Source: Elusimicrobiota bacterium (GTDB taxonomy: Bacteria > Elusimicrobiota > Elusimicrobia > UBA1565). Taken from it: a DNA stretch of 64,000 nucleotides. The notes under the pieces were generated by a model. The model ran no database searches and was not told the DNA's origin. It worked only from the letters and a program-made list of their open reading frames with translations. The first letter of the stretch is position 1. The number at the start of each line of letters is the position of its first letter. The stretch covers positions 1-64,000 of the forward strand of contig JBDREN010000083.1 of the NCBI GenBank assembly GCA_043819795.1. The letters are read 5' to 3'. Positions 560 through 23,400 of the stretch are shown one piece after another. The translations under genes were made by a program, and so were the position numbers.

Positions 560-698
560 GGAACATCCTCCCGTGCGATCCAGTGTTAAATTGGACCTCG
601 ATGATGCCTGCCCCTTTATCATAACAAAGTTGGAGCGGTGGCGGGTATCGATCGCATACCCCCTTGAAAATTCCCGCGATTCGGGTTAGGCTAAGAGG

Positions 699-4871: not shown

Positions 4872-6011
4872 CTATCTCGCGAGCGCCTGCCAGCCGGTGC
4901 CCGGCGGCGGCCGCACCCTCAGGCCTCGCCCCGCGGCCGGCAAGCCCGCGGGCAGAGGCCGGTGCCGGCCGAGCTGCGCCGTGAAGATCCCCTCGCGGGC
5001 CTTGACGTACACGGACTCGCTCCAGAGCTCAGGGGCGGACGTCTCCGAACCGGCCAAGGCGAAGCTAAGCAGGTAAGTGCCGCTCTTGGGCTTGCCGTCG
5101 GCGTCCAGGAGCATCCCCCGGAATCTCCGCGTGCGCCCTTCGGGATCGCCGCCAAGGACGTGCTCGACGACGCCCGGCGCGAAGCGCACCGTCATCTCGC
5201 CGTCCTCCCAGGAGGCCGAATACCGGACGGGCTCAACCAGGTCGAAGACCACCCGCGTGATCGGCACGGGCTCCGACTCGAACTGGCCCGAGCGGACCCC
5301 CTTCAGGAAATCCCCGTCTCCCGGACGGGAGCGGTCGAGCGCCGCGTGCTCCGTCTTCATGAGGTCCACCACGAGGCGGGGCGGATCCTTCGCGACGAAG
5401 GCGCTGTACGGGACCGGCCGGTCCAGCTTGAGCCGCACCTGGTCGGCGCCGACCTCGACGCCGCGCAGCGAGGCGACCCTCGCGGGCACGGGCGGCAGGG
5501 GCGAGAGGATCCCGAGGGCCCGTCTAGCCGGGGAGCTCTCCGAAGCCGGGCCCGACAGCGGCCCCAGAGCGTCCTTCAGGTCGCCGGGGACGTCGGGCAC
5601 GAGGCGCAGCGACATCTCGGACCCGAGCCAATAAGTCCAATAGCGCGCCTCGGCGCTCAGGTCGAGTACGATCCGCGTCACCGGCACGGGATCGGTCTCG
5701 AACTGACCGCTGCGGACGGCGCGGAACGGCGCGCCCCGCCCTTCCCACAAGCGCGGCGCCGCGTCGTGGACGGTATCGAAGAGGTCGACCACAAGGCGCG
5801 GCGGGTCGTGGAGGAGGAAGGTCGCGTGCCGCGCGGGGTTGTCCAGCGAGATCTGAATCCCGTCCGAGAAGACCTGCACGCCCTGGAGGACGCTTTCCGC
5901 CAGCGCCTGCCGGGGCGGCAGCGCGGACGCGACGACGAACGCGGCCAGCAGAGCCCCGGCGGCCGTGCGGGTGCCGCACCGGCAGACGTCTAGGTTTTTC
6001 GGTTTCATCAT
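4872..6011 (-). CDS. Exported protein with two AMIN domains and a C-terminal beta-sandwich-like domain
   Basis: Signal peptide. Two copies of DPPRLVVDL...VRSGQFE..PVP.TR.V.DL. Confidence 0.85.
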   Translation of the reverse strand: MMKPKNLDVCRCGTRTAAGALLAAFVVASALPPRQALAESVLQGVQVFSDGIQISLDNPARHATFLLHDPPRLVVDLFDTVHDAAPRLWEGRGAPFRAVRSGQFETDPVPVTRIVLDLSAEARYWTYWLGSEMSLRLVPDVPGDLKDALGPLSGPASESSPARRALGILSPLPPVPARVASLRGVEVGADQVRLKLDRPVPYSAFVAKDPPRLVVDLMKTEHAALDRSRPGDGDFLKGVRSGQFESEPVPITRVVFDLVEPVRYSASWEDGEMTVRFAPGVVEHVLGGDPEGRTRRFRGMLLDADGKPKSGTYLLSFALAGSETSAPELWSESVYVKAREGIFTAQLGRHRPLPAGLPAAGRGLRVRPPPGTGWQALAR

Positions 6012-7676
6012 TTAGAACATTACCCTCAGGTTGAAGGATGTACGGTCGTCTTTGTAGTTGAACTGGCCGCTGAAGCGCGAATGGCGCTGCCGCCGGCCGT
6101 AGGCGATCCCGGTGGACAGCCAGCGCCGGACCGCGTAGTCGGCGCTCAGGGTCCCGCCGTAGAGATCGTCGCGCCGGTTGGCCGACTCCCCGGACACGGT
6201 GGACGACTCCGGGTAGCGGTCGGTCTGGAGGCTCCCGTCGATGGACACCTTCAGCTTGTGGTACGTATGGCTGGCGCCCAGGCTGGCCCCCGTCGCGACG
6301 TAATAACGGTTGCTGGAGAAGGTCGCCTCGTTGATCCTGCGGAACGCGCCGATCCGCACATTGGTGCGGCTTCCCGGGGCGTAGACCAGCTGGACGGAGG
6401 TCAGCAGATTCCGAACGTCCCTGTCGCCGCCGGCGGGGGCGTAGTCGTAGCGGCGCAGCTGCGCGTCGGCCTGGACTCGCCCCGAGAGCTTCGCCGTCAG
6501 GCGCCCGTCCACCCCCAGCCCGAAGCGGTGGGACTTCGAATGCTTCCGCGCTCCCGCGGAGTAGTGGATGATCTGGCGGCCGTAGGCGGCGAACAGGCGC
6601 GTCTTCGGCTGCAGCCGTATGCCCGCCTCGCCTTCTATCGAAAGCTCGAAGCGGTTGAGGTTAGAGGAAAGAGACGGGTCGAGGTACTTGTGCAGCACGT
6701 GCAGCCCGGAAAGCTTGTAGACGAAGCGCCGGCTGCGGGCGTGATCGACGCTCACGCCGAGATCGGCCTTCGTGCGCCGCTTCCGGGCGACGAGCTCGCT
6801 GAAGGCCGGGTCCTCCGTGTTGAGATAGGTCTCCCACGCGCGCATCGAGACGCCCCTGCGCCCCTTGTGGGCGAAAGCCACCTTGATGAGCTGATCCACG
6901 GAGTTGTTGGCCTTCGGCTGCCGGGAGTACGTGGTCAGCTTCGAGTCGTAGACCACGTCCAGGCGGTTGCGCCGGTTGAACGGGACGGCGAAGTCCGCTC
7001 CCAGGTTGTTCTGGGTGATCCAGGAGCTCCTCACTCCTCCGCCGGTGCGAGCCCCGTTCGCCCTGTCGGGCGGGACGAGATAGATGTTCGAGTCGTATGT
7101 CTGCCTCAGGCCGTAGTACGGATGCACCTCGATGACCAGGCGCAGCTCCGGCTTCTTGAAGCGCGCCATCTTGTCGAAGGCCCTGGCCAGCCCGGCGAGC
7201 GGGTCCCAGGCGGCGGGTGGAGCGGGCTCCTCGGGGAGCGGGGGCCTGAGGGGAGCGGGCAGCTCTCCGGCCTTGGGCCCGGTCAGAGGCACGAACTGCC
7301 CGGCTCCGACACCGACGGCGGCCGCGCCGCGGGGGGTGACCTCGACCTCCCCGGCGTGGACGAGCATATGCCCCTCCCCTTCCGCGATCAGGAACGTGAA
7401 CGAGTCGCCCTTGTCCGCGCGGACCAGCGTCTCCTCCACCAGCAGCAGAGCGTCACCCTCGACGATGGACGCGCGCGCGCCGGAAGGCAGAGAATAGCCG
7501 GAAGAACCGGGAGCGAGGCGGACCGGCCGCTTGTCCACCTCCAGGAGCAGCTTGTCCGAAAAACCGATGACCTGCAGCTTCAGGTCCGCCTTCGTTTGAG
7601 CCAAGCAGGTGTTCGCCGCGATGAGAAGGCCGGCAGCCGCTATACAAGCGCGGATACTCCGGTCCCAGTCAATCAT
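6012..7676 (-). CDS. Outer-membrane beta-barrel protein (BBP2/DUF2320-like) with a FecR-like N-terminal region
   Basis: Signal peptide from ATG 7676. YDSNIY motif, alternating beta-strands and terminal Phe (FNLRVMF). Confidence 0.75.
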   Translation of the reverse strand: MIDWDRSIRACIAAAGLLIAANTCLAQTKADLKLQVIGFSDKLLLEVDKRPVRLAPGSSGYSLPSGARASIVEGDALLLVEETLVRADKGDSFTFLIAEGEGHMLVHAGEVEVTPRGAAAVGVGAGQFVPLTGPKAGELPAPLRPPLPEEPAPPAAWDPLAGLARAFDKMARFKKPELRLVIEVHPYYGLRQTYDSNIYLVPPDRANGARTGGGVRSSWITQNNLGADFAVPFNRRNRLDVVYDSKLTTYSRQPKANNSVDQLIKVAFAHKGRRGVSMRAWETYLNTEDPAFSELVARKRRTKADLGVSVDHARSRRFVYKLSGLHVLHKYLDPSLSSNLNRFELSIEGEAGIRLQPKTRLFAAYGRQIIHYSAGARKHSKSHRFGLGVDGRLTAKLSGRVQADAQLRRYDYAPAGGDRDVRNLLTSVQLVYAPGSRTNVRIGAFRRINEATFSSNRYYVATGASLGASHTYHKLKVSIDGSLQTDRYPESSTVSGESANRRDDLYGGTLSADYAVRRWLSTGIAYGRRQRHSRFSGQFNYKDDRTSFNLRVMF

Positions 7677-7786
7677 CCTGGACGATGGGCGCGCCGCATC
7701 CGATAGCGATTCCTCCTTACGACGACAATCCGGCAAGAAAAACGCCGCGGCGCCCCCCGCGGGGGGGTTTGTCGCGGCGTCAATGG

Positions 7787-7813
7787 TCCTAAAGTCCTTA
7801 TAGGACTTTTGGG
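7787..7813. promoter_or_regulatory. Palindromic putative operator AAAGTCCT-tat-AGGACTTT
   Basis: Perfect 8-bp inverted repeat (7791-7809) in an AT-rich gap upstream of the beta-barrel gene. Confidence 0.55.
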
Positions 7814-7901
7814 AACATCGAAGGATAACCGAAATTACGCGATTTGTCAAGACTCTACACGCTCTTTTCGCAAAGTAGCCTTACTGTGGCGGAGCCTGCC
7901 C

Positions 7902-8675
7902 TCACCTCTTGACCACCGGCACCAGCAGCTTCTGGCCCGGCGTCAGCTCCCCTCCGCGCTGGATCCTGTCGTGATTGGCCTGATACAGCTCGATCCAGCG
8001 CTCGGCGCTCCCGTAAAGCTTGGTCGCGATGCTGCGCAGCGTGTCTCCCCGCCGGACCACGTAGATCCGCGCCCGCGACTCCTCGGAGGGAAGGCCCCCG
8101 TCGCGGAGCGTGGCCTCGATGACGTCGAGGCGCTTGCGCGACTCCTCGGCCTCGCGCTTGGCGCGGCGCGCCTCCGCCTGGGCCTCTTCGACCTCCCTCT
8201 TGAGTTTGTCGAGCTCCTCGGACGACGGAGCGGGGACCTCGACAGAATCCCCCGCCTGCCCCGGATCCGGCGCGGCGGCCGCCGGCGCCTCGACCTGGAT
8301 CACCTCCGGGGGACGCGAAGCCTTGGCCGCCCAGCCTGTTCCCGGCGGGGCCTCCACCGTCAAGCGGTAAGCCGCCGAGAGCGCCTCTTCGGGGATCGCG
8401 GAATCCTCTCCCAGGGTCGCGATGAAACGCCCCTTCTCGGCCAGAACGTAGCGGGACTCTCTCCAGACCTCCTTGCCACCGGCGAATTCGTTCCAAAGGC
8501 GGAAGTGCAGCAGGAAGGTCCCGTTCTGCGGTTGGCCTCCGGAATCGGTGAGCTCCCCGGAATATCGCAGGGTCGTCCTGCCCGCGGATGCCGGCAGACA
8601 CAGGATCATGACCGCCAGGGCCGCCAAAGCGCACGGACGAACGCCGGATGTGGATGTGTCGCGCGTCGTTCTCAT
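7902..8675 (-). CDS. Exported LysM peptidoglycan-binding protein
   Basis: ATG 8675 overlaps the upstream stop (ATGA). Signal peptide, coiled coil, and C-terminal YVVRRGDTLRSIA...LYQAN...LTPGQKLLVP. Confidence 0.9.
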   Translation of the reverse strand: MRTTRDTSTSGVRPCALAALAVMILCLPASAGRTTLRYSGELTDSGGQPQNGTFLLHFRLWNEFAGGKEVWRESRYVLAEKGRFIATLGEDSAIPEEALSAAYRLTVEAPPGTGWAAKASRPPEVIQVEAPAAAAPDPGQAGDSVEVPAPSSEELDKLKREVEEAQAEARRAKREAEESRKRLDVIEATLRDGGLPSEESRARIYVVRRGDTLRSIATKLYGSAERWIELYQANHDRIQRGGELTPGQKLLVPVVKR

Positions 8676-9922
8676 GGGATCTCCTCCCGTATTCGTTCTT
8701 CGAAGGCCGACAAGGGCCGGACATGGACGGTGCCGGAGCCGTCCCGGCCCATCCATACGTCGTCGCCCCGCAGCGTGAAGCCGGACAGCGGCGCCCCCCC
8801 CTCGTTCAAGAGCGGGAGGCTGTAGACGGCCAGGACGCCCAGCCTGGCGTCGAGCCGGTGCCTGTAGATCATCCGCGTCTCCGAGTCGGCCGACCAGAAA
8901 TACGAGCCGTCCTTGAAGATGGAGGAGGGGGCCCTGCCCGGGGCCGGATAGCTCTCGAGCACCGTCAAGCCGGCGTCGATCCCATGCTGATAGAACCGCC
9001 GCTCCGAGGCGTCGCTGGACCACAAGTAGCGACCGTCGAAATAGACCCCGGCGGGGTTCGGTCCCGGGCTCCGATAGGCGCGCACGAGAGAGAAACGCTC
9101 GTCGAGGCGGCGCTTCTGGATCTCGCGCTTCCAGGAGTCGCATACGTAGAGATGCTCGCCCGAAACGGCGATCCCCGTGATATGCGTCTCCGGCAGGTGA
9201 ACGGAGCGGACGACCTCGAGGCGGTTGCCCCGGCGCTCGTACTCGTAGACGCTCTGCGTGACCCAGTCGGCGCTCCAGAGCCGGTCCCCGCGCCAGACAA
9301 GCGCCGTGGCGTTCTCGTGGGGGATGGCGAAATCCCTGCCCGCCTGCCGTCCGTAGAGCGTCCAGAGGATCCAGGCGCAGAACGCTCCCGCGATGAGCGC
9401 GCCCGCCAGCAGCCACGGCCACCCGGACGCTTCGCGCTTCGCCGGCCCGGCGGACCGGCCGCGCGCCGGCAGAGGCGCGGGACGGGCGTCCAGCGGCGCG
9501 ATGACCCCGCGGACCTTCTCCGCGAGACGGCGTCCGAGGACTCCCATCCCTTCCGGAGCCTTGCCGCCGGTGAGAACGCGGTCCACGGTCTCCCTCAGCT
9601 CCCGGTTGCTGAAAGGCTTGGCCAGATAGTGGCTCGCGCCCAGCTGCATGACTTCCACGGCCGACTCCACGCTGCCGTAGCCGGTCACCATCACGACCGG
9701 CGTCGTCCCATCGACCTCCCGAAGCTTGCGCAGGATCTGCACGCCGTCCATCCCCGGCAGGCGCATGTCCAGCAAGACGAGGTCCGCGCCCTCGCGGGAC
9801 AAAAACTGCAGCGCGGTGGGGCCGTCCCCGGCCTCGTAGACCTGGTGACCCAGCCGGCTAAGGACGTTCGCGAGCGCCATCCGCATGTCCGCTTCGTCGT
9901 CTACCACCAGGATGCGTGCCAT
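8672..9922 (-). CDS. Response regulator receiver fused to a TM helix and an extracytoplasmic beta-propeller-like domain
   Basis: ILVVDDE, LLDMRLPGMDG, MVTG, LAKPF. TM WLLAGALIAGAFCAWILW. Repeated LWSAD/LYVCD/LWSSD/FWSAD blades. Confidence 0.85.
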   Translation of the reverse strand: MARILVVDDEADMRMALANVLSRLGHQVYEAGDGPTALQFLSREGADLVLLDMRLPGMDGVQILRKLREVDGTTPVVMVTGYGSVESAVEVMQLGASHYLAKPFSNRELRETVDRVLTGGKAPEGMGVLGRRLAEKVRGVIAPLDARPAPLPARGRSAGPAKREASGWPWLLAGALIAGAFCAWILWTLYGRQAGRDFAIPHENATALVWRGDRLWSADWVTQSVYEYERRGNRLEVVRSVHLPETHITGIAVSGEHLYVCDSWKREIQKRRLDERFSLVRAYRSPGPNPAGVYFDGRYLWSSDASERRFYQHGIDAGLTVLESYPAPGRAPSSIFKDGSYFWSADSETRMIYRHRLDARLGVLAVYSLPLLNEGGAPLSGFTLRGDDVWMGRDGSGTVHVRPLSAFEERIREEIP

Positions 9923-9923
9923 G

Positions 9924-12900
9924 TCATCCTCTCTTCGCTTCGACCGAAAGCGTCACAGTCGAGGTGCTGCCCGCGTCCTTCTTGCTCCGGAACTCGAAGG
10001 AACCGCCGTGCGCCGCGACGATCCGTTTCGCGATCGCCACGCCCAGCCCCAGGCCGCCGGCCTTCATGGTGTAGAACGGCCGGCCCACATCCTTGACGTG
10101 CTCCGGCGCCACTCCGGCGCCGGTGTCGGAGACCTCGACGCGGACGGTCCCGCGCGCCGCCTGATAGCGGGCCCTGATCGTCAGAGTGCCTCCCTCCGGC
10201 ATCGCCTCGATCGAGTTGAGCAGCAGGTGCAGCAACGCCTCCTTGAGCCGCTCCGAATCGCCGCGAAGCTCCGGGACACCCTCCGCGACATCCGCCACGA
10301 TCCTGATATGCTTCTCGTCGCACTGCCGGGCGACCTCCGCGACGGCCGAGTCGATCCACGCCTCGACCTCGAGCGCCTGCGGCTTCAGGCCCAGGGGGCG
10401 AGTGAAGTCCGTGAGCTGCTCCAGACGCTCCCGCAGGTTCCCGATCGCCCGGAGGATGGCGTCCATGGTCGCGCGCTCCTTGCCGCCGACCCACAATCCG
10501 GAGAGCCGGTCCTCCGCCAGGCTCTGGATGATGCCCAGCGGGTTGCGGATCTGATGGGCGATCCCGAAGACGAGATCGGTGAGCTCGGTCTCGAAGGCCA
10601 CCTGCGGCAGGCGCCCCGTCTCCGCCTCGGGCTTCAGCCCGGAGAGCAGCCGGTCGCGCAGCTGACGGAGCTCCCTCTGCCGCCGCTCGATGTCGACCTC
10701 CGCCCCGGCAAGCTTGTCCTCGCGCCCCTGGGACTGCCTTTCCCTGGCCGTCATCTCCTCATCGAGCTTCCGGCGACGACGCTCGAGCTCGGCCTCCTCA
10801 TTCTTGAGCCGCTCGCGCAGCTTCTTGTCCGTCCCCCGCAAGAGCTCCTCGACTTCCTCGCGGCGCCGCTCGACCTCCGCTTCCTTCTGAGCGGACTCGT
10901 CCATGAGGCGCTTCTCGCCGGACTGCTCGCGCTCCTTGAGCGCCTTATCGCGAGCGTCGAGCTCCGCCTCCCTCTTGTGAAGCTCGGACGACGCGGTTTC
11001 CTGCTGCTTCTGCAGGCGCTCGCCTTGGAGCCGCGCGGTCTGCTCGACCTGGACGGCGCTCTGCTCTTCGAGCTCCTTGCGGCGCTCATCGAACTCAGCC
11101 TCGAGCCTGGTGCGCTCCACCACGAGCCTCTTGCGGTTGGCGGCCAAGAGGGCCGACTCCTTCTCGGCCAGGACGGTCCGCATCTCGCGCTCGAGCTCCT
11201 CGCGACGCCGCGCCTGGTCCTCATCCGCCGCCCTCTGCGACTCGCGCAGCAGACGGCGCTCGTGCTCGAGCTGCGCGTCAAGGTCCCGCTCGTGCGCCAA
11301 ACGGCGCTCCTCCCCCTGCTTCTCCAGGAGGTCCTCGCGCTTGCGCAGCTGATCCTCCAGGCTCTCCGCGTGCAGGCGGAACTCCTCCTCCTTCTCCTTG
11401 AGCTGCGCGCGGAGATCGTCCTCTTTGGTCTGCAGATCCCGGTCGTAACGCGCGCGCTCCTCGCGCCGGATGCCGCGACGCGCCTCCTCGACCTTGTGCA
11501 GGAACTCCTTCTGAAGCGCGGCGCGCTCGGCGTCGAGGCCCTCCTCGCGCCTGGCCATCTCATCGCGCAGAGCGACGTGCATCTCCTCGGACGACTTGCG
11601 CAGCTCCGCGCGGTTGCGCTCCTGAGCCTCGCTGACCTCATTGAGCAGCGCCTCCTCCCGCTTCTTCCACGCGCGCTGAAGCTCCTCTTCCCTGCCCAGA
11701 TGCTCCCGCTGCAGGGCCGTCTCGCGCTCGCGGAAGTCGCGCTCGAGCTCGGCGCGGCGGGCGTCGAGCCCCGCACGGGCGCGCTCGAGCGCCTCGCGCT
11801 CCGCCGCGACGGACTGCCGCAGGTCGCTGCGCTCCCGCTCCAGCTCGGCCTCGCGTTCCTCGACCGACTCGCGCATGGCCGTCTCCTTGCGCGCGTAGGC
11901 TTCCCGCAGCTCCGTCTCCCGGGCCTTCAGCTTCCGGCGACTCTCCTCGACCTCGACCTCGAGCTCGGCCTTGGCCTTCGCCCAATCCTCCCGCAACGCC
12001 TCCCGCTGCGCATCGAGATGACCCGAGACCTCCGCCTCGGCCTCCTCGCGCGCGCGCCGCAGCTCGGCCTCCTTCTCGCTGACCGCCTTCTCCAGAGCCC
12101 GCTCCCTCTCGCGGTACTCCCGGGCCACTCCGCTCTTAAACGACTCCAGCTCCCGGGACCGCCGCACCTCCTCGGCCGCGAGCTCGGCGCGCTCCCGCTC
12201 GAGCTCCCCGTGACGCGCCTGGTAGGCGGCCTGCAACTCCTCCTGCCGGTTGCGATACTCGGCCTCCAGGCCGGCCCGGGCCTTTTCGACGTCCCGACTT
12301 CGCTCCGCCAGCGCGGCGCTCTTGCTCTCGATCTCCCGGACCTGCTCCTGCCGCTCCCGCTCGAAGCGCGCGGCCAGCTCGGTTCTCTGGTCGGCCAGCT
12401 CCTTGCGAAGCTCGGCCTCGCGATGAACGAAGGACTCCTCAAGAGCCTGCTCGCGCTTCCGGAGCGAATCCTCCACACGCTTTTGGGCCGCCCCCAGCCC
12501 CTCGGTCTGGCGTTCGAGCTCGGCCTGACGCGCGCGAACGCCCTGCTCCTGCTTCTGCTGCTCCATGGCCAGAGCATCGCGAAGCTCGGCCTCGCTCTGC
12601 GCGAACGACTCCTCAAGAGCCTGCTCGCGTTTCCGGAGCGAGTCCTCCACGCGCTTGCGGGCCGACTCCAACTCCTCGGTCTTACGTTCGAGCTCGGCCT
12701 GACGCGCGCGAACGGCCTGCTCCAGCGTCTGCTGCTCCGCGGCCAGCGTCTCGCGGTCGCGCTCGAAGCCGGCGCGCAGCTCCCGTTCGCGCAACGCCGA
12801 GGCGGAACGCACCCCCTCCTCCCGCGCCCGGAAGGCGTTCTCGAGCTGCGTCTCGCGCTCACGCAGGCTTTTCTCAACCTGTAATTTGGACGCGTCGAGT

Positions 12901-15900
12901 TCCCGCATCCGCCGCGCCAGCTCCGCCTCGAGGCGCTCGCGCTCAGCGGCGAGCTCCTCCTCTTTCTGCCGGACCGCCGATTCCACCTCGGCCGCGCGGT
13001 CGCCGTGCTCGCTCTCCAGCAGCGACCGCCGGTGCGCGAGCTCTTCTTGGAAAGCCTTGCGCTCCCGCTGCGTCCGGGCGGAAAGCTCCGCGTCCCGCTT
13101 GGCGAACCCCGCGCGCAGCTGTTCCTCCCGCGCCGAGTAGGCGCGCTGCAGATCGGCCTCACCCTCCCGCGCGCGCTCCTCGAGCGCGAGGCGAGCCTCC
13201 TCGAGCGCCTTTTCCTTGCGCGCGAGCTCGTCCTGTCGCTGCTCGGCGGCCTGATCGAGCTGCTTTTCCTTATATATGAGCTCGGCCTGGCGCTCGGCAA
13301 GGACGCGCTCGTGCTCCTCGTACGTCTCCTGAAGCCGCCGGCGCTCCTCGACGAGCGCGGCGCGCAGCTCGCTCTCTCGAGCCGCCAACGCCGAGCGCGA
13401 CTCCTCCTTCCGCTTCTCGAACTCGCGCTCGAGCCGCGCCTCGCGTTCCTGCAGCCTCTTTTCCTCGTCCATCCGGGACGTCTCCAGCTCGCGCTTCTTG
13501 CGCCCCGTCTCGTCCTCGATGCGGGTGCGCTCGCGCTCGATGGCCTCCTCCCTCCCGCGCAACACCAGGTCCATCTCACGCTGACGGTCCTCGAACGCCC
13601 GGTGCATCTCGGCGCGCTCGCTCTCCGACTCCACCTTGCGCCGCTCAAGACGCTCCATGGCCTGGGCGCGCTCGTTGTTCGCGGCGTCCTCGCGCTTCCG
13701 GAAGTCCGACTCGAGCTCCGATAGACGCTGCTGGTGGGCCTTCTCCAGATCAGCCTCCTGGGACCGGATCGCCTTCTCCAGCTCGAAACGCAGGCGGTCC
13801 AGCTCACCCTCCCTTCGGTCGTACTCGGCCTCAAGCGCGGCGCGCTGCTTCTCAAGAGCCGCCTCGAGCTTCCGTCGAGACTCGTCCTCCCAGCGGGCCT
13901 CGCGCTCGTTGAGACGCTCCGTGAAGGACCTGAGCTCGGCCGCCAGGCGGTCCTCGGCCTCGCGCTTCGAAAGATCCTGCTTATGCTCCCATTCGGCCTT
14001 CAACTCGGCCTCGAGCTGGAGGAAGTTCTTCTGAAGCGCATCTTCGCGCTCCCGGTAGAGAGCGTCGAGAGCGGCCCGCTCGCGGGACTGATTGTCCTGC
14101 ATCTCGGAGACCATCGCCTGCTCGCGCCGACGCAGATCCTCGCCAAGAGACTCGTCCTTGGACTTGTACTCAGCCTCGAGGGCCTGCCTCCGCGAGTCAA
14201 GGTCCTTGACGCGCGACTCCAGCTCGGCGGCCTGCGCCGCCATCGCCTTGCGATGCTCCTCCTGGAAGTGCTGGTACTCCTTCGCGATCTCCCTGCGCTG
14301 ATGGTCCAGCCAGGCGTCGTTGCGCTTCTTCATCTCCGCGCGGGACTCCGCGAGGCGGCGCTTGTACTCGCGCTCGAGATTGTCCTGCTGGTTCTTCAGC
14401 TCGGCTTCCCGCTGGGCGATCGCCTCGCGCATCTCGCCTGCGATGCGCTCGGTCTCGTAGCGTATGCGAGCGCGATAGCTCTCGCGCTCCTCGTCGACCT
14501 TCTGCAGCAGCTCGCTCTCACGCTGGCTCCACCGCTTCTCGAGCTCAGCCTCGCGCTCGAGATAGGACTTATCCAGCCTCGTCTCCTTCTCCCGCATCTC
14601 CTTTTGGAGCTGCGCCTGCAGCTTCTCCAGCTCCAGCTGCTTGCGCTCGTATTCCTCCTCCAGGACCGCACGTTGCGACTCGAGCTGCGCCGCCCTCTTG
14701 ACCTCGAACTCGGCCTCCGACTGGCGGACCTTGCGCTGGATCCCGTCCTCCTGCTCCTTGAGCGAGCGTTTGAGCTTCTCGGCGGACTCCTCCTCCAGGA
14801 GTTGGGCCTTGTGCGCCCGGTCATCCTTCAGCTGCTTCTCGAGGCTCACATAGTTCGAATGCAGGGTCTCCTCGCGGCTCCGGTAAAGCTCGTCGAGGGA
14901 CTGACGCTCCCGCGTCAGGACGACCTGCTGCTCCTCGATGAAGCGTCTCTCCCTGAGACGCCACTCGTCGGCGAGCTCCTCCTCCCGCTTCCGGTGGTAA
15001 GCCTGGAGGGCGTCGCGCCGCTTGGCCAGCTCACCCTCCCGCTCGTTCGACTCGGCGTTGAGCGCCTCGAGGTGGGCGCGGGCGTGCTCCTTCTGCTGCT
15101 CCCGTTCGCGGATGGTCATGCGGCGCTGGCGCTCCAGCCACTGCTCCTTCTCCTTCTCGGACTCGGCCAGGGCGTCTCTCTTCCAAGCTTCGAACCGCAC
15201 CGCCAGCTGCGAGTCCGCCTCCGCGAGGGCCGCGGCGTGCTGCTCCCGCTCCTTCTGACGCTCGGCCTCGAGCGCCTGCACGGTCTCCGCGAAGCGCTGC
15301 GCCTGCGCCTGGAGGGCTTCCTGCCGCCGCGAGAGGTATTCCCTCTCCTTGCCCGTCCATAGCTCCTGAAGGCCGCGCTCCATCTCGATGTACTTCTCCT
15401 CGCGCTGGGCTTCTCGGCGCTTCTGGGCCTCCTGAATGGAGACGCGCTCCGCCTCGTGCCGGCGCTCGCGCGACTGCAGGTCCTCCCAGAGCGCCCGCTT
15501 CTCCGCATCCAACTTCTCGAACTCTTCGCGGACGCGGCTCAGCTCCAGATCCTTCTCCGAAAGCTGCTTCTCGCGCTCCAGGAGCTCGCTCTGATGCCCT
15601 TCCTTCAGGTTCTTGACCCGAAGCTTCCACTCGGCCTCGCGCCGCTCGTACTCGGCGTCCAGGTGCCTGGCCTGCTGGAGCAGATGCCGGCCCTGCGCCT
15701 CCTTGAGCGCCCGGACCTCCGCGGCGTGAGCGTCCTTGGCTTCGGCCTCCCGGCGATCGTAGCGGTCCTCGAGGTCCCGCTCCAGGCGCGCGTAATCCTG
15801 CTTCATCTTCTCGGACCGGCCGAAGAGATCGGCCTCATCGCGCTGGCGCCGCTGGTCGTGCTCCTCCTTCGTCTTCTCCATCTCCATGCGGGCCGCGCGG

Positions 15901-17522
15901 CGCACCTGCTCCAGCGCGATCTCGTAGCGGCGCACCAGCTCGGCCTCCCGCAGGTGCCACTGCTTATCGAGGTTCTTCTCCTTCTGGATGTACTCCGAGA
16001 TCACGGTCTGCTTCCACGTCCGGAACTGCTCCTCGATCGTCTGCTGGGTCCTCTCCAGCTCGGCGACCCGGGCCTGGTAGGCCTCCTCGAGCGTCCGGTC
16101 GCGCTGCTCGAACTGCGACTTCAGGGAAGCCCGCTCGGCCTCGACGGCCTTCTCATGCTCCTCGAGGAGCTCCATCTTGCGGCGCGTCCACTCCTCGCGC
16201 AGCGCGTTCTCCTTCGCCAAGTACTGCTCCTGCATCTCCACGTGCTTGTGCTGGGAGGCCTCCTCGAGCGCCTTCTCGCGCTCTTGCACGCGGTTCTCGG
16301 CCTCCGCCCAGCGGGCGTTGAACTCGGCTTCGAGGGCGGTGCGTTGGCGGTCCCCGTCGCGCTGGACCTCGGCCTCCCGCCGCTCGAGGTCCCGGGACCG
16401 CGCCTGATACTCCTCCTCGAGGGCCTTGGCGCGCTGTCGCGCCCGCTCGGCGGCTTCCGCCTTTTCCTTCTCGAGCTCGTCCTCGACGCGCTTGAGCAGC
16501 TGCGCCTCCTTACGGATGTGGCTCTGCTGCTGCTGGGTCTCCATCTCGGCGTAACGCGTCTCCACGCTCTTCACACGCTTCTGGAAGTCCTCCTCCAGCT
16601 CCCGACGCCGGCGCTCGAGAAGCCCTTCGATCTCGCGCGAGCGGTCGGCCAGCGCGCGGGCACGCTCCTCGAACTGCTCCTGCACGGCCGTATCCAGCTT
16701 CTCACGCGCATCCTTCGCGCGCTGCCACAAGCCGTTCTCGAGCTCCGCCCAGGCGGCCTGCAGCTCGGCCTCGCGCTTGCCGTACTTCTCCTGCAGGGCG
16801 AGCTCCTTGGACCGGAACTCCCCGAAGAGCTTCTCCTCGCGCTCCTGGAGCTTGAGCTCGCCCTCCTTCGCGGCGGCGGCCAGCACCCGCTGGAACTCCT
16901 CGTTCTTGCGCCTAAGATCGAGTATCTCGCGCTCCTTGAGCTCGAGCTCCGCCTCGCGGTTCTTCAGCGTGTTGAGGATCTCCTCGTCGCGTTTCTGGCG
17001 CAGCCGCTGCACCATATCCTGGTCGCGGTGGAAACGGTTGACGAGCTCGGCCTTCTCGCGCTGGGAGGCCATCAGCTCGGCGTCGCGCTGCTCGAGAATG
17101 CGCCTGAGCTCCCGCCACTGCTCCTCCTTGGAGCGGTGCGTGCCCTTCCACTGCTGGACCTCTGCCGTCAGGCGGGACAGCTCCTCGTCCATGTGCCCGC
17201 GGTCGCGCTCCACGCGCGTCCGTTCCTCTTCGCGGACCTCGAGACGCACACGGTCGCGCCAGCGCTGCTCCTGATCCCGATGATTCTTGCGCTCCTCCTC
17301 CCAGCCTTTGGACTCGTCCTTCCATGCGGCGACCTGTCTCGTCAACTCCTCCTTCTCCTGCTGGAGCATCTGCTGTCCGTTCTGGGCTTCCTGGAGGTTC
17401 CCCTTGAGGCGCACATTCATATCCTGGAGGTCACGGATCGTGGCCACGGCCCCCCGGATCGCAAGTCGCGCAGCTTCCAGATCGGTTATCTCTCGATATG
17501 CCTCTTCATCCCATGGGTTCAT
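9924..17522 (-). CDS. Giant (2,532 aa) coiled-coil protein with C-terminal HisKA and HATPase_c domains
   Basis: About 2,300 aa of E/R/K/Q/L/A-rich heptad-like sequence. Then AHQIRNPL, LLLNSIEAM, DTGAGV, PFYTMK, GLGLG. GGGAGG SD before ATG 17522. Confidence 0.9.
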   Translation of the reverse strand: MNPWDEEAYREITDLEAARLAIRGAVATIRDLQDMNVRLKGNLQEAQNGQQMLQQEKEELTRQVAAWKDESKGWEEERKNHRDQEQRWRDRVRLEVREEERTRVERDRGHMDEELSRLTAEVQQWKGTHRSKEEQWRELRRILEQRDAELMASQREKAELVNRFHRDQDMVQRLRQKRDEEILNTLKNREAELELKEREILDLRRKNEEFQRVLAAAAKEGELKLQEREEKLFGEFRSKELALQEKYGKREAELQAAWAELENGLWQRAKDAREKLDTAVQEQFEERARALADRSREIEGLLERRRRELEEDFQKRVKSVETRYAEMETQQQQSHIRKEAQLLKRVEDELEKEKAEAAERARQRAKALEEEYQARSRDLERREAEVQRDGDRQRTALEAEFNARWAEAENRVQEREKALEEASQHKHVEMQEQYLAKENALREEWTRRKMELLEEHEKAVEAERASLKSQFEQRDRTLEEAYQARVAELERTQQTIEEQFRTWKQTVISEYIQKEKNLDKQWHLREAELVRRYEIALEQVRRAARMEMEKTKEEHDQRRQRDEADLFGRSEKMKQDYARLERDLEDRYDRREAEAKDAHAAEVRALKEAQGRHLLQQARHLDAEYERREAEWKLRVKNLKEGHQSELLEREKQLSEKDLELSRVREEFEKLDAEKRALWEDLQSRERRHEAERVSIQEAQKRREAQREEKYIEMERGLQELWTGKEREYLSRRQEALQAQAQRFAETVQALEAERQKEREQHAAALAEADSQLAVRFEAWKRDALAESEKEKEQWLERQRRMTIREREQQKEHARAHLEALNAESNEREGELAKRRDALQAYHRKREEELADEWRLRERRFIEEQQVVLTRERQSLDELYRSREETLHSNYVSLEKQLKDDRAHKAQLLEEESAEKLKRSLKEQEDGIQRKVRQSEAEFEVKRAAQLESQRAVLEEEYERKQLELEKLQAQLQKEMREKETRLDKSYLEREAELEKRWSQRESELLQKVDEERESYRARIRYETERIAGEMREAIAQREAELKNQQDNLEREYKRRLAESRAEMKKRNDAWLDHQRREIAKEYQHFQEEHRKAMAAQAAELESRVKDLDSRRQALEAEYKSKDESLGEDLRRREQAMVSEMQDNQSRERAALDALYREREDALQKNFLQLEAELKAEWEHKQDLSKREAEDRLAAELRSFTERLNEREARWEDESRRKLEAALEKQRAALEAEYDRREGELDRLRFELEKAIRSQEADLEKAHQQRLSELESDFRKREDAANNERAQAMERLERRKVESESERAEMHRAFEDRQREMDLVLRGREEAIERERTRIEDETGRKKRELETSRMDEEKRLQEREARLEREFEKRKEESRSALAARESELRAALVEERRRLQETYEEHERVLAERQAELIYKEKQLDQAAEQRQDELARKEKALEEARLALEERAREGEADLQRAYSAREEQLRAGFAKRDAELSARTQRERKAFQEELAHRRSLLESEHGDRAAEVESAVRQKEEELAAERERLEAELARRMRELDASKLQVEKSLRERETQLENAFRAREEGVRSASALRERELRAGFERDRETLAAEQQTLEQAVRARQAELERKTEELESARKRVEDSLRKREQALEESFAQSEAELRDALAMEQQKQEQGVRARQAELERQTEGLGAAQKRVEDSLRKREQALEESFVHREAELRKELADQRTELAARFERERQEQVREIESKSAALAERSRDVEKARAGLEAEYRNRQEELQAAYQARHGELERERAELAAEEVRRSRELESFKSGVAREYRERERALEKAVSEKEAELRRAREEAEAEVSGHLDAQREALREDWAKAKAELEVEVEESRRKLKARETELREAYARKETAMRESVEEREAELERERSDLRQSVAAEREALERARAGLDARRAELERDFRERETALQREHLGREEELQRAWKKREEALLNEVSEAQERNRAELRKSSEEMHVALRDEMARREEGLDAERAALQKEFLHKVEEARRGIRREERARYDRDLQTKEDDLRAQLKEKEEEFRLHAESLEDQLRKREDLLEKQGEERRLAHERDLDAQLEHERRLLRESQRAADEDQARRREELEREMRTVLAEKESALLAANRKRLVVERTRLEAEFDERRKELEEQSAVQVEQTARLQGERLQKQQETASSELHKREAELDARDKALKEREQSGEKRLMDESAQKEAEVERRREEVEELLRGTDKKLRERLKNEEAELERRRRKLDEEMTARERQSQGREDKLAGAEVDIERRQRELRQLRDRLLSGLKPEAETGRLPQVAFETELTDLVFGIAHQIRNPLGIIQSLAEDRLSGLWVGGKERATMDAILRAIGNLRERLEQLTDFTRPLGLKPQALEVEAWIDSAVAEVARQCDEKHIRIVADVAEGVPELRGDSERLKEALLHLLLNSIEAMPEGGTLTIRARYQAARGTVRVEVSDTGAGVAPEHVKDVGRPFYTMKAGGLGLGVAIAKRIVAAHGGSFEFRSKKDAGSTSTVTLSVEAKRG
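12405..12720 (-). repeat. Internal tandem duplication with 174-bp (58-aa) period in the giant kinase
   Basis: CGTTCGAGCTCGGCCTGACGCGCGCGAACG occurs at 12511 and 12685. VRARQAELER...KRVEDSLRKREQALEESF occurs twice. Confidence 0.9.
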
Positions 17523-17628
17523 GGTCGCCTCCCATGGAGATGGACGCGGCCATCCCCTGCGCGATGCTCGGTCATGGTCGCCTCCCACGGCAGTCGACGC
17601 GACCATTTCCTGCGCTATGCTCGGTCAT
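17519..17628 (-). repeat. Two tandem 53-bp mini-ORF/SD cassettes upstream of the giant kinase
   Basis: ATGs at 17628, 17575 and 17522. The units encode MTEHSAGNGRVDCRGRRP* and MTEHRAGDGRVHLHGRRP*, each ending in an ATGA overlap. Confidence 0.85.
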
Positions 17629-17844
17629 AACACTGCCTCCAGGTAGATACGTCCGCCCCCCACGATGGGGCGATGCCCTATAGCACGAACTCTCTCTTCA
17701 ACGTTAGTGTATAGCCGCAACCGGAAAAATCAAGCACTCTCAGCCATTACTTGGCCGAGCCTCGGCGGGTTCCCAGATCCGACTCCTAGCCTAGGGAAAG
17801 GATAACGGGGGGTAATTACAGATTCTTTAACGAAAATCGGGGCC

Positions 17845-18071
17845 TAACAGTCCGTGGCAAAAGTCTTCCGGGGCCTGCGATCGCCTGGATGCGGCCTGCG
17901 CCCGCGTTGCTCCTCGGTCACACCGGGCCCCGGCAGGGGCCCAGTGCCGCACGACCTCAGGAAATGCTTCGGAGCGCTGTCATCCCGTAGAGGGATGCTA
18001 CCTCGTCGCGCCTTGGCTCGGCTCGCCCCGGACGATTTCGCCATCCGAAATACTTTTGCCACGGACTGTTA
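17845..18071. mobile_element. MITE-like element, family A (complete, with a 60-bp internal insertion)
   Basis: Perfect 20-bp inverted repeat TAACAGTCCGTGGCAAAAGT, including the terminal TA. Homologous to 1-138. Its end overlaps the stop codon of the PAS kinase. Confidence 0.85.
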
Positions 18072-19136
18072 AGGCCGCGATCGAGCGGGGAAGACAACGG
18101 TGACGGCCGTCCCTCGGCCGGCCTCGCTGTCGAAGGAGATGGTCGCCTCGTGCTCGGCCAGGACGCGCTTGGCGAGATAGAGCCCCAGACCCGTGCCGTC
18201 CTCTTTGGTCGTGAAGAAGGGCGCGCTGACCTTCGCCAACACCTCGGGCGCCATCCCCGCGCCCGAGTCCCCCACGACGAGACGCGCCCCCCCCCGCTCC
18301 GGGACGTCCGTGACGACGCGCAGGCGCCCCCCTTTCGGCATGGCCTCGATCGCGTTGACCAGCAGGTTATGGACCACGGCGCGGACATGCTGCTCGTCGA
18401 GGAGCAGTCTCGGGATGTCGCCGAGCCGCACATCGAGCTCGATCCGCTGCTTCTGGCACATCTTCTCGACGAGACGGACGACGCCGCGCGCCACCTCGTT
18501 GAGCGAGCCCTCGCGCAAGAGAGACTTCCCCACCTTGGCGAAGTCCAGAAGGGCCCGTATCGAAAGCGACCCGTGCCGGGCGTTGCGGAGGATCATCTCG
18601 AGGTTCTCTTTCATCTTGGAGTCGGGGGAGAGGGACTCGAGCCCGAACTCGGCCGTGCTGGCGATGACGTGCAGCGGCGTGCGCATCTCGTGAGCGAAGG
18701 TCGCCGCCATTCGCCCGACAGCGCTGAAGCGCTCCATCCTGACCAACGCCTCCTGGACGGCCTTGTGCTCGGGGGCCGTCTCGAAGTCGGCCACGGGGGG
18801 GCTGATCATGACGAGGAAGGCCTCGGGGCCCTTCCCCAGCGAGCGGACGGTCAAGAACACCCTTTCCGGGCTCCCGTCGCGGCGCGTCATCCGCGCCTCG
18901 TAGTTTTTGAGCACCTTCACGTTGCAGGCCGCCTTGAGCAATCCGACGCATTCCTCCCGCCTCGGGAAGAACTCCGCGAAGTCGCGATCGACAGCCTCCT
19001 CGAGGGGGACGCCAAGGAGCTCGGCGGCTCCGCGGGACCACGTCCGGACCACGCGGGAACCGTCGAGCCCGACGAGCGCATCCTCGGACTCGTCGAACAT
19101 GCAGGCGAAAAGGCGGTCTTTCAACCGTTCTTCCAT
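18069..19136 (-). CDS. PAS-domain sensor histidine kinase (cytoplasmic)
   Basis: PAS (WSRGAAELLG, RRDGS), AHEMRTPL, NLLVNAIEAM, DSGAGM, PFFTTK, GTGLGL. Confidence 0.92.
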   Translation of the reverse strand: MEERLKDRLFACMFDESEDALVGLDGSRVVRTWSRGAAELLGVPLEEAVDRDFAEFFPRREECVGLLKAACNVKVLKNYEARMTRRDGSPERVFLTVRSLGKGPEAFLVMISPPVADFETAPEHKAVQEALVRMERFSAVGRMAATFAHEMRTPLHVIASTAEFGLESLSPDSKMKENLEMILRNARHGSLSIRALLDFAKVGKSLLREGSLNEVARGVVRLVEKMCQKQRIELDVRLGDIPRLLLDEQHVRAVVHNLLVNAIEAMPKGGRLRVVTDVPERGGARLVVGDSGAGMAPEVLAKVSAPFFTTKEDGTGLGLYLAKRVLAEHEATISFDSEAGRGTAVTVVFPARSRP

Positions 19137-19325: not shown

Positions 19326-20216
19326 ATGAAGCCCGAGTCACCAACCGCAGCGCAGAAGCCGGCCGAGATCCGCGAGGGCCTGTGGAAGATCAAGCTGCCC
19401 AATCCGAAGTCCTTCTTCAAGATCGGGGTCGGCAAGAAGCACGCCCAGGCGAACTCTCTGTTCCTGGAGATCGACGGCAAGCGCCGCTTCGAGATCGGAA
19501 ACGACTGCGACACCTGCCACTTCTGGTTCAAATGCCTGCAGGATCCTAAGATCTTCGCCCAGAAGAAAGTCGTCAACCTCCCGAAGTCCTTATCGGTGCC
19601 GCGCCCCCTCGACGCAAAGCTCATCCGCGAGATCCTCCCGGTGATCGAGCTCATGGACAAGGGGGATCACTACATATTCAACACGAAGCTCCAGCTCGCC
19701 GGACCGTACCGTTCCGACGACGAGTCCTCCTACTTCTACAACAGCGAGTTCATGGAGATATGGGACATCGAGGACCCCGCCTCCGAGGACCTCCTCTCCG
19801 GCTGGGAGCATTACGAGGGCAAGACCCCGCGCGTCTTTCGGCACGACGGTGTGATCGAAAAGCAGTTCGACTTCGTGATCCCTCTCGTCCCCCAACAACG
19901 TCTCAAGCAGGAGAACATACGCGTCTACCAGCAGATGATCGCGGGCGGGGACCGGCCGCGGGTCCTGCTGCTGGGCATGCTCCACCGCCCCGTCCCCGGG
20001 AGCGTCTCCTCCGGACAGACGAAGAACCTGCATTCGTACTTCGCGGGCTTCGTGCTCGACGGGCACCACAAGCTGGCCGCCTATCAGCGCGCCGGGGTCC
20101 CGGTGAACTCCCTCGTAGTCTTGTCCCAGAAGGCCAGCAAGTACTTCCTGCTCGAGGGCGAATCCGCCCCTCAACGGACGCGCCTCGAGGACCGCCTGGC
20201 CTCGATGGCGACCTGA
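19326..20216 (+). CDS. Hypothetical protein with CxxC and a ParB/Srx-like DGHHK motif
   Basis: Typical codon usage and composition. NDCDTCHFWFKC and GFVLDGHHKLAAY. Confidence 0.75.
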   Translation: MKPESPTAAQKPAEIREGLWKIKLPNPKSFFKIGVGKKHAQANSLFLEIDGKRRFEIGNDCDTCHFWFKCLQDPKIFAQKKVVNLPKSLSVPRPLDAKLIREILPVIELMDKGDHYIFNTKLQLAGPYRSDDESSYFYNSEFMEIWDIEDPASEDLLSGWEHYEGKTPRVFRHDGVIEKQFDFVIPLVPQQRLKQENIRVYQQMIAGGDRPRVLLLGMLHRPVPGSVSSGQTKNLHSYFAGFVLDGHHKLAAYQRAGVPVNSLVVLSQKASKYFLLEGESAPQRTRLEDRLASMAT

Positions 20217-20464: not shown

Positions 20465-23400
20465 ATGCGGCGGACCAATGGGCCCAGGTGGGTTCTACTC
20501 GCGGCCTGCGCGTTGAGCCTCCAGGGCGCCGCCCGCGCCGGGACCGGTCCCCGTCCCTCTCCGAAGAGACTCCAGGAAGAGAAGCTGCCCGGCGCCATCG
20601 TCGCGAGGCTCCCTGTTCCCGCCGCCTTCGCGTCTCCGGGGGCCCCGGCTTCGACGCTCTCCTCTCCGGCGGTCCTGCTCGCGCGGGAGATCGATGAGCT
20701 GTTCGCCGGCCTGAGCAGTGAGACCAACGACGGCACGCGGGCTCTCCGCCAGCCGGCTCCGGAAAAAGCCCCGCCCCGGGGAACCGGCTCCGGACGGCTT
20801 TCGTCGCGATCGTCTCCCGCGGCGGGAACGCGCGAGCCCGCCGAGGTTTTCGCCGCCCTGGACCGACGGCTCTCCGACATCCGCGCCCGGATCATCGATA
20901 CGATCGACGATCCCGAGGAGGTCGCGATCCTCCTGGCCCGCGTCGACCGGATCCGTGGCGTCCTGGCCAAGCTCCGGAGGGCCGGGGAAACGGGCCAAGC
21001 CCGTTCCCTGTCCGGGGCGATGGCCGGACTGGCGCGGGCCCTCGGGCGGGGGACCGATGACGAGAACCTCTCCAGGTTCGAGACCCTGGTCGACCGCCTG
21101 ATGCAAGCGCGGTCGCTGCCCCCCGACCGGCTCGGAACGATCTTCGACAACACGCCCGAGTTCCCGGACAGCGATGTTCTCGCCCCCGTCCCGGCGGAGG
21201 GCTTCAAGGCCCGGGCCCCGCGAGCAAGGGCGAGCGGAGCGGGCGTTTCGCAAGCGGCCCTGTTGGACATCGACCGCTACCCACGGCCCCTGACCGGGAT
21301 CCGTGTCGACGGCGGCGTCGTTCCGAAGCCGAGAGGGCCGGGAACCTCGGCCAAGGCCGAGCCGGAGTCCGAGGTCGGCCGCCCACAGCGACGAGCGGTC
21401 ACCGCTTCGCAGGGGCTTGAGCGCTCGGCTGTCGCGGCGCTCTCGCCCTTCGCGGGACTGAGCCCGAAAGGCCGCCAGGACCTGTTCCGAAAGGACCGGG
21501 CCGCTCTCAGGCGGGAGCTGCTCGCCGTCGGACTCCGGGCGCTCGAGGAGGGCGACGCGGAGCTCGAGCCGTATCGGGAGGATCTGGACGCCGCGGACGG
21601 AAGGCTCTCCGGGATGCGTAAAGCGCTGCTGGCCCGGCTCGGGTTCGATGCGCCCCCGCACAACGACCAGGAGCGCAGCGGGCGGTTCGCGACTCTCACG
21701 AAAGAAGCCCCCCATCTGTCTCTCTATTTCGCGCGGCGCGGGATTTACCAGATGCGCATGCGGCAGGCCCACGGCGAGCATGCCGTGCCGCCGGAGACGC
21801 GCTTCGCACCCTGGGAACTCGGCATCGAGGACGGCAGCGAGAAAGCCGTCGTCTACGCTACGGCCAAGGACGGCGACCGCACGTTCTACGGGCTGCGCCG
21901 GGAGTTCCAGGACGGCTCCTCGCGCTTCGCGGCGACCGACGGAGCGGAGGGGCTGGTCGTCGTGGTGTCCCCCTCCGATAGCCGCGAGATCCGCACGCGT
22001 ATCCGTTTCGACGACCAGGGCCGGCCGGATCGCACCCGGACCTCGATCATCGACACGGGGACCGGCAAGAGGATCCGGGAGGAGATCGCCGACATCGCGC
22101 GGGCGCTCACGCGCTTCGTCGATTACGATCAAGCCGGCGACGCGGTGAGGGTCCTGACCCTGGACAGCGGCACCGGCGAGCAGGTGGTGGAGGACCGCCG
22201 GCAGGGCCGCCGCGTCGCGACCGACAAAGACGGAAAGGTCACGATCACGCCGATCCGAGGCGGAGCCCAAGCCTGGCAGCAGCAGGGCCGGCTCGATGAG
22301 AGCGGCCGCTTCATCCTCGACCGCCTGGTGCGCGAAGACGGCAGCGTCGTCGAGCGCGTCAGCCCGCACGTCCTGAAGATATCGCGAGACGGCAAGGCGC
22401 AGGGCTATGAGATCGTCGTCGACTCCATCTTCCATGGCGCCCGGGGGCCTGAGCGCGAAGCGGAGTCCTCCAGGATCGCCCGCGAGATCATCGCGGCGCT
22501 CGGCTACCAGGACAAAGACGACCGGCGCTCGCGCCCCCTTAGCAACTGGCTCTCCGACACCTGGACGAAGGACGAGCGGACGCGCGGCGTCGCGATGACG
22601 GTCGATCCGCGCGGAAGGTTCCAGGTCGTCTACAGCTACAAAGACGGGACCAAGCGCATCGAGCGCGCCAAGTACGGCCTTTCGACCTCGTACGGCGACG
22701 GGAAGCGGGAGCTCGCGCTCGTGACGCTGAGGCCGGTCCATACCGACCGCCAGGGCCGGGCGCGGCTGGACCCCCGGCGCTACCGCGAGTACCTGGCCGG
22801 CGGCGGCTACAACCAGTGGCATTCCACTTTCGAGTTCAAGAAGGCCGGCTGGTTCTCGAACGCGAAGACGATCGAGCACGTCTCCCTCATCCGCTACGGC
22901 CGGGACGGAAGCCTTCCACGCCTGGGTCCCGGGAGCGGGGGCGAGCGGGACGGAGACTCCGGCAGCGGCCGCTGGACGGAACGCGGCCGGGAGAAGAAGG
23001 ACGAATTCGTCAATGAGGTCGGCGGGACATCGACCTTCGGCATCGTGGGGACCGCGATCCATGAGGCGCCGGTGGTCGGGGACGTCCTGCAGGCCGGCGG
23101 AGCGGTCGGAAAGACGCTCTGGACGGGCATCATGGCGGCTCCGCCCACCTTCATCTATGCGGTCACCAAGGACACGGATTACGGCCTCGCCATGTCGGGA
23201 AGCTACGCGAAGAACCCCCTGGTGAACCGTCTGGTGGGAGACCAGGGACACCTCGACCGCATGGACGGCAAGATGTGGGAGGTCGTCCTTATCGAGGCCC
23301 GCGAAAACCGCCGAAAAGACCTCGATCAGATGGGCTACACCGAGGGGAATACGGACCCGGAGGAGCATCAGCGTTTGCTCTCCCAATGGCGCGGAGACCG

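Follow-up and report, generated by a model that had tools for sequence, protein, structure and literature searches.

A hendecad coiled-coil rod ending in a histidine kinase module with likely phosphatase bias in an Elusimicrobiota bacterium

The window, a stretch of 64,000 nucleotides from an Elusimicrobiota bacterium, encodes on its minus strand (9924..17522) a protein of 2,532 residues in which a very long coiled-coil rod carries a histidine kinase module at its C-terminus. Including this one, 12 complete genes of the kind were found. The kinase tip has a glutamine in place of the acidic residue that follows the phospho-accepting histidine (position H+1) and, to judge from its sequence and from analogous kinases, it is likely biased toward phosphatase activity. 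The system is real and unusual, and it is built from known parts. The first-pass annotation of this DNA had recognized the rod and the tip, but it missed the coupled protein made up of a receiver domain (REC), a transmembrane (TM) helix and a beta-propeller, as well as the paralogs in which a rod is directly fused to a TM-propeller.

The rod and its gene

The rod (10635..17252, minus strand) is dominated by Glu (22%), Arg (16%), Ala (12%) and Leu (11%) and has no Pro. Prolines occur in the full protein at residue 3 and then from residue 2298 onward, leaving residues 4 to 2297 free of them. The highest hydropathy reached over 19 residues is 1.16, for which reason the protein is considered to lack TM segments, and no Pfam sensor domain was found in it either. 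A hydrophobic period of 3.58-3.70 characterizes 32 of the 35 windows taken along the rod (median 3.66), whereas 200 shuffled sequences averaged 5.3 such windows and never exceeded 13. The rod is a coiled coil of the hendecad type, and the earlier description of a coiled coil of ~2,300 residues with practically no Pro, no TM segment and no sensor is borne out. According to the available part of PMC9858780, coils of this type have little supercoil. The rod of G104 is an exception among the orthologs, with a median period of 3.56. A reading of the rod as a single alpha-helix was rejected, as 20% of its residues are large hydrophobics with a strong period.

If the rod is unbroken and does not fold back on itself, its 2,296 residues would measure 344 nm at 0.15 nm per residue, in agreement with the ~340 nm that had been estimated at first. 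Under the same assumption of straightness, the 12 complete tipped genes would encode rods of 231-469 nm. This length varies among homologs approximately twofold (1,540-3,125 residues), and even within one genus two rods (G006 and G012) differ by 374 residues. A fixed-length ruler, one of the two functions initially put forward for this protein, is made unlikely by this spread, whereas the other, a cytoskeleton-like role, fits the existence of tipless rods and membrane-anchored paralogs. Small offsets in the alignments with relatives often amount to 4, 11, 18 or 22 residues; together with an in-frame tandem duplication of 58 residues (174 nt, 86% identical; 12393..12740, minus strand), they fit a growth of the rod by units of 7 and 11 residues.

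The rod is preceded by an N-terminal head of ~90 residues (17253..17522, minus strand) with a heptad-like period of ~3.43 and the motif A[RK][LM][AT][LI]R[GW]A, which a head-motif profile search found to be common to four rods of the same genome. A weak likeness of the head to ZapB was considered and not adopted: 16 of the 37 heads matched PF06005 at E <= 0.1 (best 7e-6), but all the scores listed fall below the cut-off of 31.5 bits, and FtsB and coronin coils do equally well or better. The ZapB structure 2JEE matched the head at E 0.021 amid generic coils, and the genome has a separate ZapB-like gene that reaches the PF06005 cut-off. DivIVA is not among the best 25 of 75 Pfam families for the heads, and the DivIVA-like motif GYDxxEVD is absent from the consensus of the head alignment. 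The closest likeness in build is to Scy and FilP from Streptomyces, which, in the portion of PMC9858780 available to us, combine a short heptad N-terminus with a long alanine-rich hendecad rod, have paralogs and vary in length; the protein studied here likewise starts with heptads and continues as a long hendecad rod. Nevertheless, the Scy rod, with >1,000 residues, is about half as long, no kinase tip or TM-propeller end is described for Scy or FilP in that same portion, and the likeness does not imply homology.

Since a gene of this size and composition could result from an assembly fusion or be inflated by repeats, its reality was evaluated. It is true that many assemblies are broken within the rod gene and that none of the public contigs compared spans it entirely; read mapping yielded short, low-depth contigs from four runs, of which none spans it either. 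Yet the 12 complete genes, which come from two orders, are each read in a single frame. In comparisons with the closest relatives, the best diagonal had zero offset in all the windows sampled over the first 600-1,350 residues for four relatives out of five, and the 174-nt duplication is the sole near-identical internal repeat. Judging by these ortholog sequences, an origin by assembly artefact is excluded, and the suspicion can be set aside with hardly any residual doubt. The fusion of rod and tip is genuine and conserved. The translation start at 17522 is preceded by a GGAGG site 7 nt upstream and agrees with the starts of the orthologs. An RNA run contained four pieces of ~200 nt inside the rod gene (0-1 mismatch) and one upstream, compared with two records for a control stretch of 19 kb; as the run had been found with this same stretch, these pieces are not taken as evidence of expression. 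The Atlas clusters of the neighboring genes are mostly from Elusimicrobiota. In their assemblies, two further rod genes are interrupted, one by a frame change (G330, locus L177) and the other by a stop codon (G035, locus L131).

The kinase tip and its coupled genes

In a Pfam scan of the full protein, the only match was HATPase_c (residues 2421-2527, E 1.6e-21). The isolated tip scored 20.6 bits against HisKA (PF00512), below the cut-off of 26.9 that 5 of the 10 scanned kinase-tipped representatives exceed. NCBIfam models place the tip closest to AtoS (E 1e-43) and ZraS (3e-42), and the best fold match of its AlphaFold model is ZraS (9JFJ, TM-score 0.76). The rod is joined to the tip by a Pro/Gly hinge (10605..10634, minus strand): a Pro is found 35 to 13 residues before the His in 23 of 23 tips and the model shows the hinge as a coil with pLDDT < 50. 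This sequence and model evidence argues against a continuous signalling helix, and the rod probably does not act as one. The hinge is followed by the DHp domain (10401..10604, minus strand; helices 31-64 and 71-98 in the tip model), with the H-box VFGxAHQ[IVM]RNP, and by the HATPase_c domain (9942..10262, minus strand). In the protein studied here the H-box reads AHQIRNP, with His2323 encoded at 10554-10556 and Gln2324 at 10551-10553, and the translation agrees with the HQ pair first noticed there.

The conservation of the tip was evaluated over 23 intact tips, corresponding to 21 orthologs and two short-rod paralogs. The phospho-accepting His, the Gln at H+1 and the Asn at H+4 are each present in 23/23, as are the second N-box Asn, DxGxG (G1) and the GLG of G2, while the Thr of G2 is replaced in all of them and retained in 19 of 35 control kinases. 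These controls, the other kinases of the same genome, have an acidic H+1 in 34 cases and Gln in none; among 83 kinases from the loci of other bacteria, H+1 is acidic in 76, non-acidic in 7 and never Gln. The first N-box position is more variable, with Asn in 11 tips, His in 6, Arg in 4 and Gln in 2, compared with Asn in 31 and His in 3 of the 35 controls. The His reported at this position by the first-pass annotation is therefore real in this protein (HLLLNS, from residue 2432) but does not hold as a conserved sign of the family.

In HisKA kinases, the acidic H+1 residue is the general base for autophosphorylation and the Thr or Asn at H+4 supports phosphatase activity, although PhoQ is an active kinase despite having Ser at H+1. 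The tip thus resembles HisKA-type kinases in its DHp His, its HATPase_c boxes and its H+4 residue and departs from them in its H+1 residue. It does not correspond to a sensor kinase, because the protein has neither sensor nor TM segment and the Pro hinge breaks the link to the DHp; nor is it a pseudokinase in the sense of having lost the His, whose absence is limited to outliers (P0107 and G007, for example). Substitutions comparable to that of the tip have been studied elsewhere. The available text of PMC3510030 describes the E372Q mutant of CrdS as kinase-dead but phosphatase-competent and reports a matching phenotype for NtrB E140Q; in DrBphP, a natural phosphatase, the non-acidic H+1 is accompanied by loss of conservation of the N-box Asn, as stated in the accessible part of PMC8292422. 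Like these proteins, the tip has no acidic residue at H+1, keeps its H+4 residue and shows a relaxed N-box Asn. The CrdS and NtrB cases, in contrast, are engineered, and DrBphP is a photoreceptor with His at H+1, according to the same partial sources, whereas the Gln of the tip, known here from sequence, is natural and fixed throughout a clade. The fixed HQ pair, the CrdS and NtrB mutants and the relaxed N-box of DrBphP make a phosphatase bias of the tip likely.

The tips form a single clade in a quick-version kinase tree (support 97), and this clade groups with that of the partner kinases described below (support 90), a grouping not starred in that tree. When the tip was used as query in a word-indexed search of proteins 1,392-4,431 residues long, 97 generic kinases of at most 34% identity and no ortholog came up; a scan of genome contigs found one ortholog among 80 loci, and the family was recovered by whole-genome searches.

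The intact tip is followed in 23/23 cases, at a spacing of -13 to +16 nt, by a gene for a REC-TM-propeller protein. Here this gene (8672..9922, minus strand; 416 residues) starts 1 nt past the rod stop codon, and its product is the likely partner of the tip. Its REC domain is closest to AtoC among NCBIfam models and keeps Asp52, Lys102 and the helix-1 residues D12, M13, R14 and A16 invariant. A hydrophobic segment (residues 150-190, weak in G104) precedes a C-terminal domain that resembles propellers of the SGL and glutamine-cyclotransferase types and is predicted to be periplasmic; a comparison of this propeller with the sequences of solved structures gave no match. Both genomes in which the H-box has been lost or degraded while the ATPase domain is kept (G007 and G004) have neither an adjacent REC gene nor a close propeller match, G004 being a fragmented assembly. 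The pairing of tip and REC is thus well supported, at the level of sequence, by gene coupling and joint loss.

On the other side of the rod gene, a PAS-HisKA-HATPase kinase of 355 residues (18069..19136, minus strand) carries the motif HEMRTP. This partner kinase adjoins the rod gene in 15 of the 17 tipped loci with readable upstream DNA and in none of 19 tipless loci. In G104 it lies ~4 kb beyond the REC gene, no ortholog of it was found in G013 (97% complete), which keeps the tip and REC, and it was not seen at the two short-rod paralog loci. Its H+1 residue is Glu in 6, Asp in 8 and Gln in 3 of 17 copies; in these last three genomes (G006, G012 and G104) neither kinase is canonical. Several copies are only ~260 residues long and apparently lack the PAS domain. 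The idea that the tip is universally opposed by a canonical PAS kinase is therefore not supported. This variability weakens a simple push-pull arrangement and leaves room for an active HQ kinase. In four loci (G006, G012, G014 and G024), a gene for an NtrC-type regulator is found between the partner kinase and the rod, and this regulator may be the real substrate of the kinase there.

The rod family

Of 401 genomes sampled across the phylum, 56 were matched by a profile built on the N-terminal region. The matches comprise 49 of the 59 other genomes of the same order and six in two other families; two large families gave none in 118 and 89 genomes, respectively. The tip profile matched 21 of 101 genomes of the order. 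Tipless loci read to their stop codon (n = 19) encode rods of ~390-2,320 residues, mostly 600-970, one of them with an internal stop, so the rod exists without signalling. Among 114 head-bearing representatives, 10 end in a kinase: seven have the HQ pair, one has Gly instead of His (P0107) and two have only the ATPase domain (P0167 and P0171); one further weak, partial kinase match falls outside these 10. The distribution of tipped and tipless rods requires five changes on the head tree, in which four of the tipped labels rely on a tip from another contig of the same genome. A single gain of the tip with repeated loss is the simplest reading of these sequences.

Besides the bare end and the kinase tip, a third ending was observed. 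In 12 genomes, including some whose main rod lacks an intact tip, 12 of 19 propeller ORFs are single chains of head, rod, TM segment and propeller; the 19 ORFs were chosen for their long frames and the proportion is not a frequency in the family. P0204 has this same structure, and P0205 has a head, a TM segment and a propeller with only a short coil. In our genome, a rod-TM-propeller on contig C209 has a propeller 65% identical to that of the REC protein, although the head profile did not match it. The two contigs of this genome that best match the two ends of P0204, namely C10 (head and rod) and C221 (TM-propeller), were compared at their ends, which do not overlap and share a match of only 14 nt; they are treated as separate pieces. 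The two short-rod paralogs have no head, which indicates that coils of other kinds carry the kinase-REC module as well.

These paralogs belong to an operon (L179 in G008 and L180 in G005) that includes the short-rod HQ kinase, a REC-TM-propeller, a REC-less coil-TM-propeller and barrel-LysM proteins with what we take to be a PorV-like start, and that is surrounded by very large, likely secreted proteins. In the genome of the window (G000), additional long coiled coils, several of which carry the head motif or end in a TM-propeller, are found on contigs C10, C131, C190, C209, C62, C155 and C218; on C131 there is, in addition, another REC-TM-propeller-like gene, whose receiver is divergent.

Possible roles of the tip

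Different scenarios may account for a kinase tip with these properties. The one that we prefer, although it falls somewhat short of being probable, is that the hinged tip of the hendecad rod has little autokinase activity and both dephosphorylates the adjacent REC and offers it a place to dock, so that phosphorylation would govern the attachment of the rod end to the inner membrane. The rod would be the structural part, assembled as a parallel dimer or in some larger bundle of low supercoil, and its tip would bind the adjacent REC with a preference for REC~P. In most genomes the partner kinase would produce this REC~P, and another donor would do so where the partner is missing. By binding REC~P, dephosphorylating it and releasing it, the tip would make and break the link that the paralogs build as a continuous chain. 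Since the rod family is also found bare or fused to a TM-propeller, the tip-REC pair may be a detachable, phosphorylation-gated membrane anchor; this fusion logic suggests a shared role and is not proof of binding. The first N-box Asn, kept in fewer than half of the tips and in most of the controls, is in favor of this interpretation. Against it, the invariant His, second N-box Asn and G1 are equally needed by an active kinase.

Indeed, the tip might autophosphorylate, perhaps slowly, and serve the REC-TM-propeller as its kinase, the Gln being tolerated in this lineage and the rod positioning the kinase or relaying a mechanical or assembly signal. The invariance of the catalytic motifs, including the GLG of G2, the three loci in which both kinases have Gln, the missing partner in G013 and at the two paralog loci, and the non-acidic H+1 of some unrelated kinases (7/83) would all be congruent with this hypothesis. 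Yet the same substitution kills the kinase activity of CrdS, at least in the available text on that mutant; conservation is relaxed at the N-box Asn with which H+1 pairs, another residue stands in for the G2 Thr, the hinge interrupts the helix from rod to DHp, and P0107 has lost the His but kept the module. We consider an active autokinase unlikely, though worth retaining.

Alternatively, in an extension of the model of the first-pass annotation, the tip could be a positioned phosphatase opposed by a diffusible partner kinase, in which case the propeller in the periplasm would receive REC phosphorylation as a signal passed outward by the TM helix, and the rod would only set position or distance. 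The preference of the partner kinase for tipped loci (adjacent in 15/17, near in one and absent in one), the grouping of the two kinase clades and the precedent of DivJ and PleC for a spatial push-pull, as presented in the available portion of PMC4211667, support this possibility. It is at odds with the twofold variation in rod length and with the fusion of the same propeller to REC-less rods, for which an anchor fits better than a signal output; moreover, the NtrC-type regulator beside the partner kinase in four loci may be its real substrate. This scenario appears rather improbable.

Finally, that the tip is a pseudokinase like DivL or PsmA, with neither activity and only binding REC or REC~P, is quite unlikely: the His and the H+4 Asn are fixed in all the tips with a REC neighbor, whereas DivL and PsmA themselves lack the His in what we have of their descriptions, and what agrees with it is that P0107 has Gly for His, that P0167, P0171, G007 and G004 have lost or degraded H-boxes but kept ATPase domains, and that the G2 Thr is absent from DivL too.

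Several known systems share some features with this protein and differ from it in others. The AtoS, ZraS and NtrB kinases resemble the tip in NCBIfam and fold matches, and the REC nearest to AtoC points to the same group; in contrast to them, the protein has no sensor or TM segment, has a rod of 2,300 residues, has Gln at H+1 and a replaced G2 Thr, and its putative regulator has a TM helix and a propeller instead of AAA+ and HTH domains. DivL from Caulobacter and PsmA from Streptomyces are the nearest cases of a kinase module recruited as a binding element in cell polarity (PMC4211667, PMC12963549); as far as the available parts of these papers go, they have no His and, as shown or inferred, no phosphatase activity, whereas in the tip, which is fused to the rod itself, both the His and the Asn at H+4 persist. 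AglZ and FrzS from Myxococcus, in the partial sources at our disposal, also have a two-component domain on a long coiled coil and use it for localization. Their receiver is N-terminal. In the system studied here, by contrast, the coil ends C-terminally in a kinase module, and it is a membrane protein that bears the receiver. In the mostly open-access literature covered (coiled coils and kinases in Elusimicrobia, HQ motifs, hendecad kinases and inside-out receivers), no description of such a system was found, and the rod protein is not covered in the available parts of PMC11573180, PMC12748827 and PMC11164954.

A broader hypothesis, which we regard as conceivable but doubtful, is that a single head-plus-rod family makes up an undescribed coiled-coil cytoskeleton of the Elusimicrobiota, whose members end bare, in a fixed TM-propeller anchor or in a kinase-receiver pair acting as a phosphorylation-gated clutch. 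In that case, two-component chemistry would mechanically couple a rod of ~340 nm to the envelope instead of relaying a signal to genes, and two-component parts would serve as a switchable mechanical joint in a lineage-wide rod system of a barely cultured phylum. The tips are also a natural clade that has fixed the Glu-to-Gln exchange at H+1 known from kinase-dead mutants, so that a pair of small soluble domains produced in E. coli would suffice to check the rule of H+1 for kinase and H+4 for phosphatase activity.

The locus includes several other genes and repeats. Downstream of the REC gene, on the same strand, are found a likely secreted protein of 257 residues (7902..8675, overlapping the REC stop codon) that combines a short coiled coil with a LysM domain at its C-terminus, a predicted outer-membrane beta-barrel (BBP2_2; 6012..7850, start uncertain) and a protein with two AMIN domains (4872..6011). 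Upstream, a divergent gene of 296 residues (19326..20216, plus strand) is conserved at 54-77% identity across the order and is transcribed away from the rod gene in 24 of 29 and 8 of 14 loci. It has a CxxC-like motif and a DGHHK motif in a weakly ParB- or sulfiredoxin-like subdomain; no Pfam or NCBIfam match and no fold match at E <= 0.001 were found, its confident model (pLDDT 84) only weakly resembling sulfiredoxin, SerK, ParB and Noc (E 0.05-0.65). A repeated element (~17840-18068) with many copies in the genome separates the two kinase genes, the whole intergenic stretch giving 98 BLAST pieces. A second short repeat (17523-17628), also present on other contigs, contains the ribosome-binding site of the rod gene. 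Further along, a protein of 1,746 residues (20465-25705, plus strand) has tandem repeats and a low-complexity tail and gave no Pfam match, and toward the start of the window a frame at ~690-1760 (plus strand) presumably encodes a PilT-type twitching-motility ATPase.
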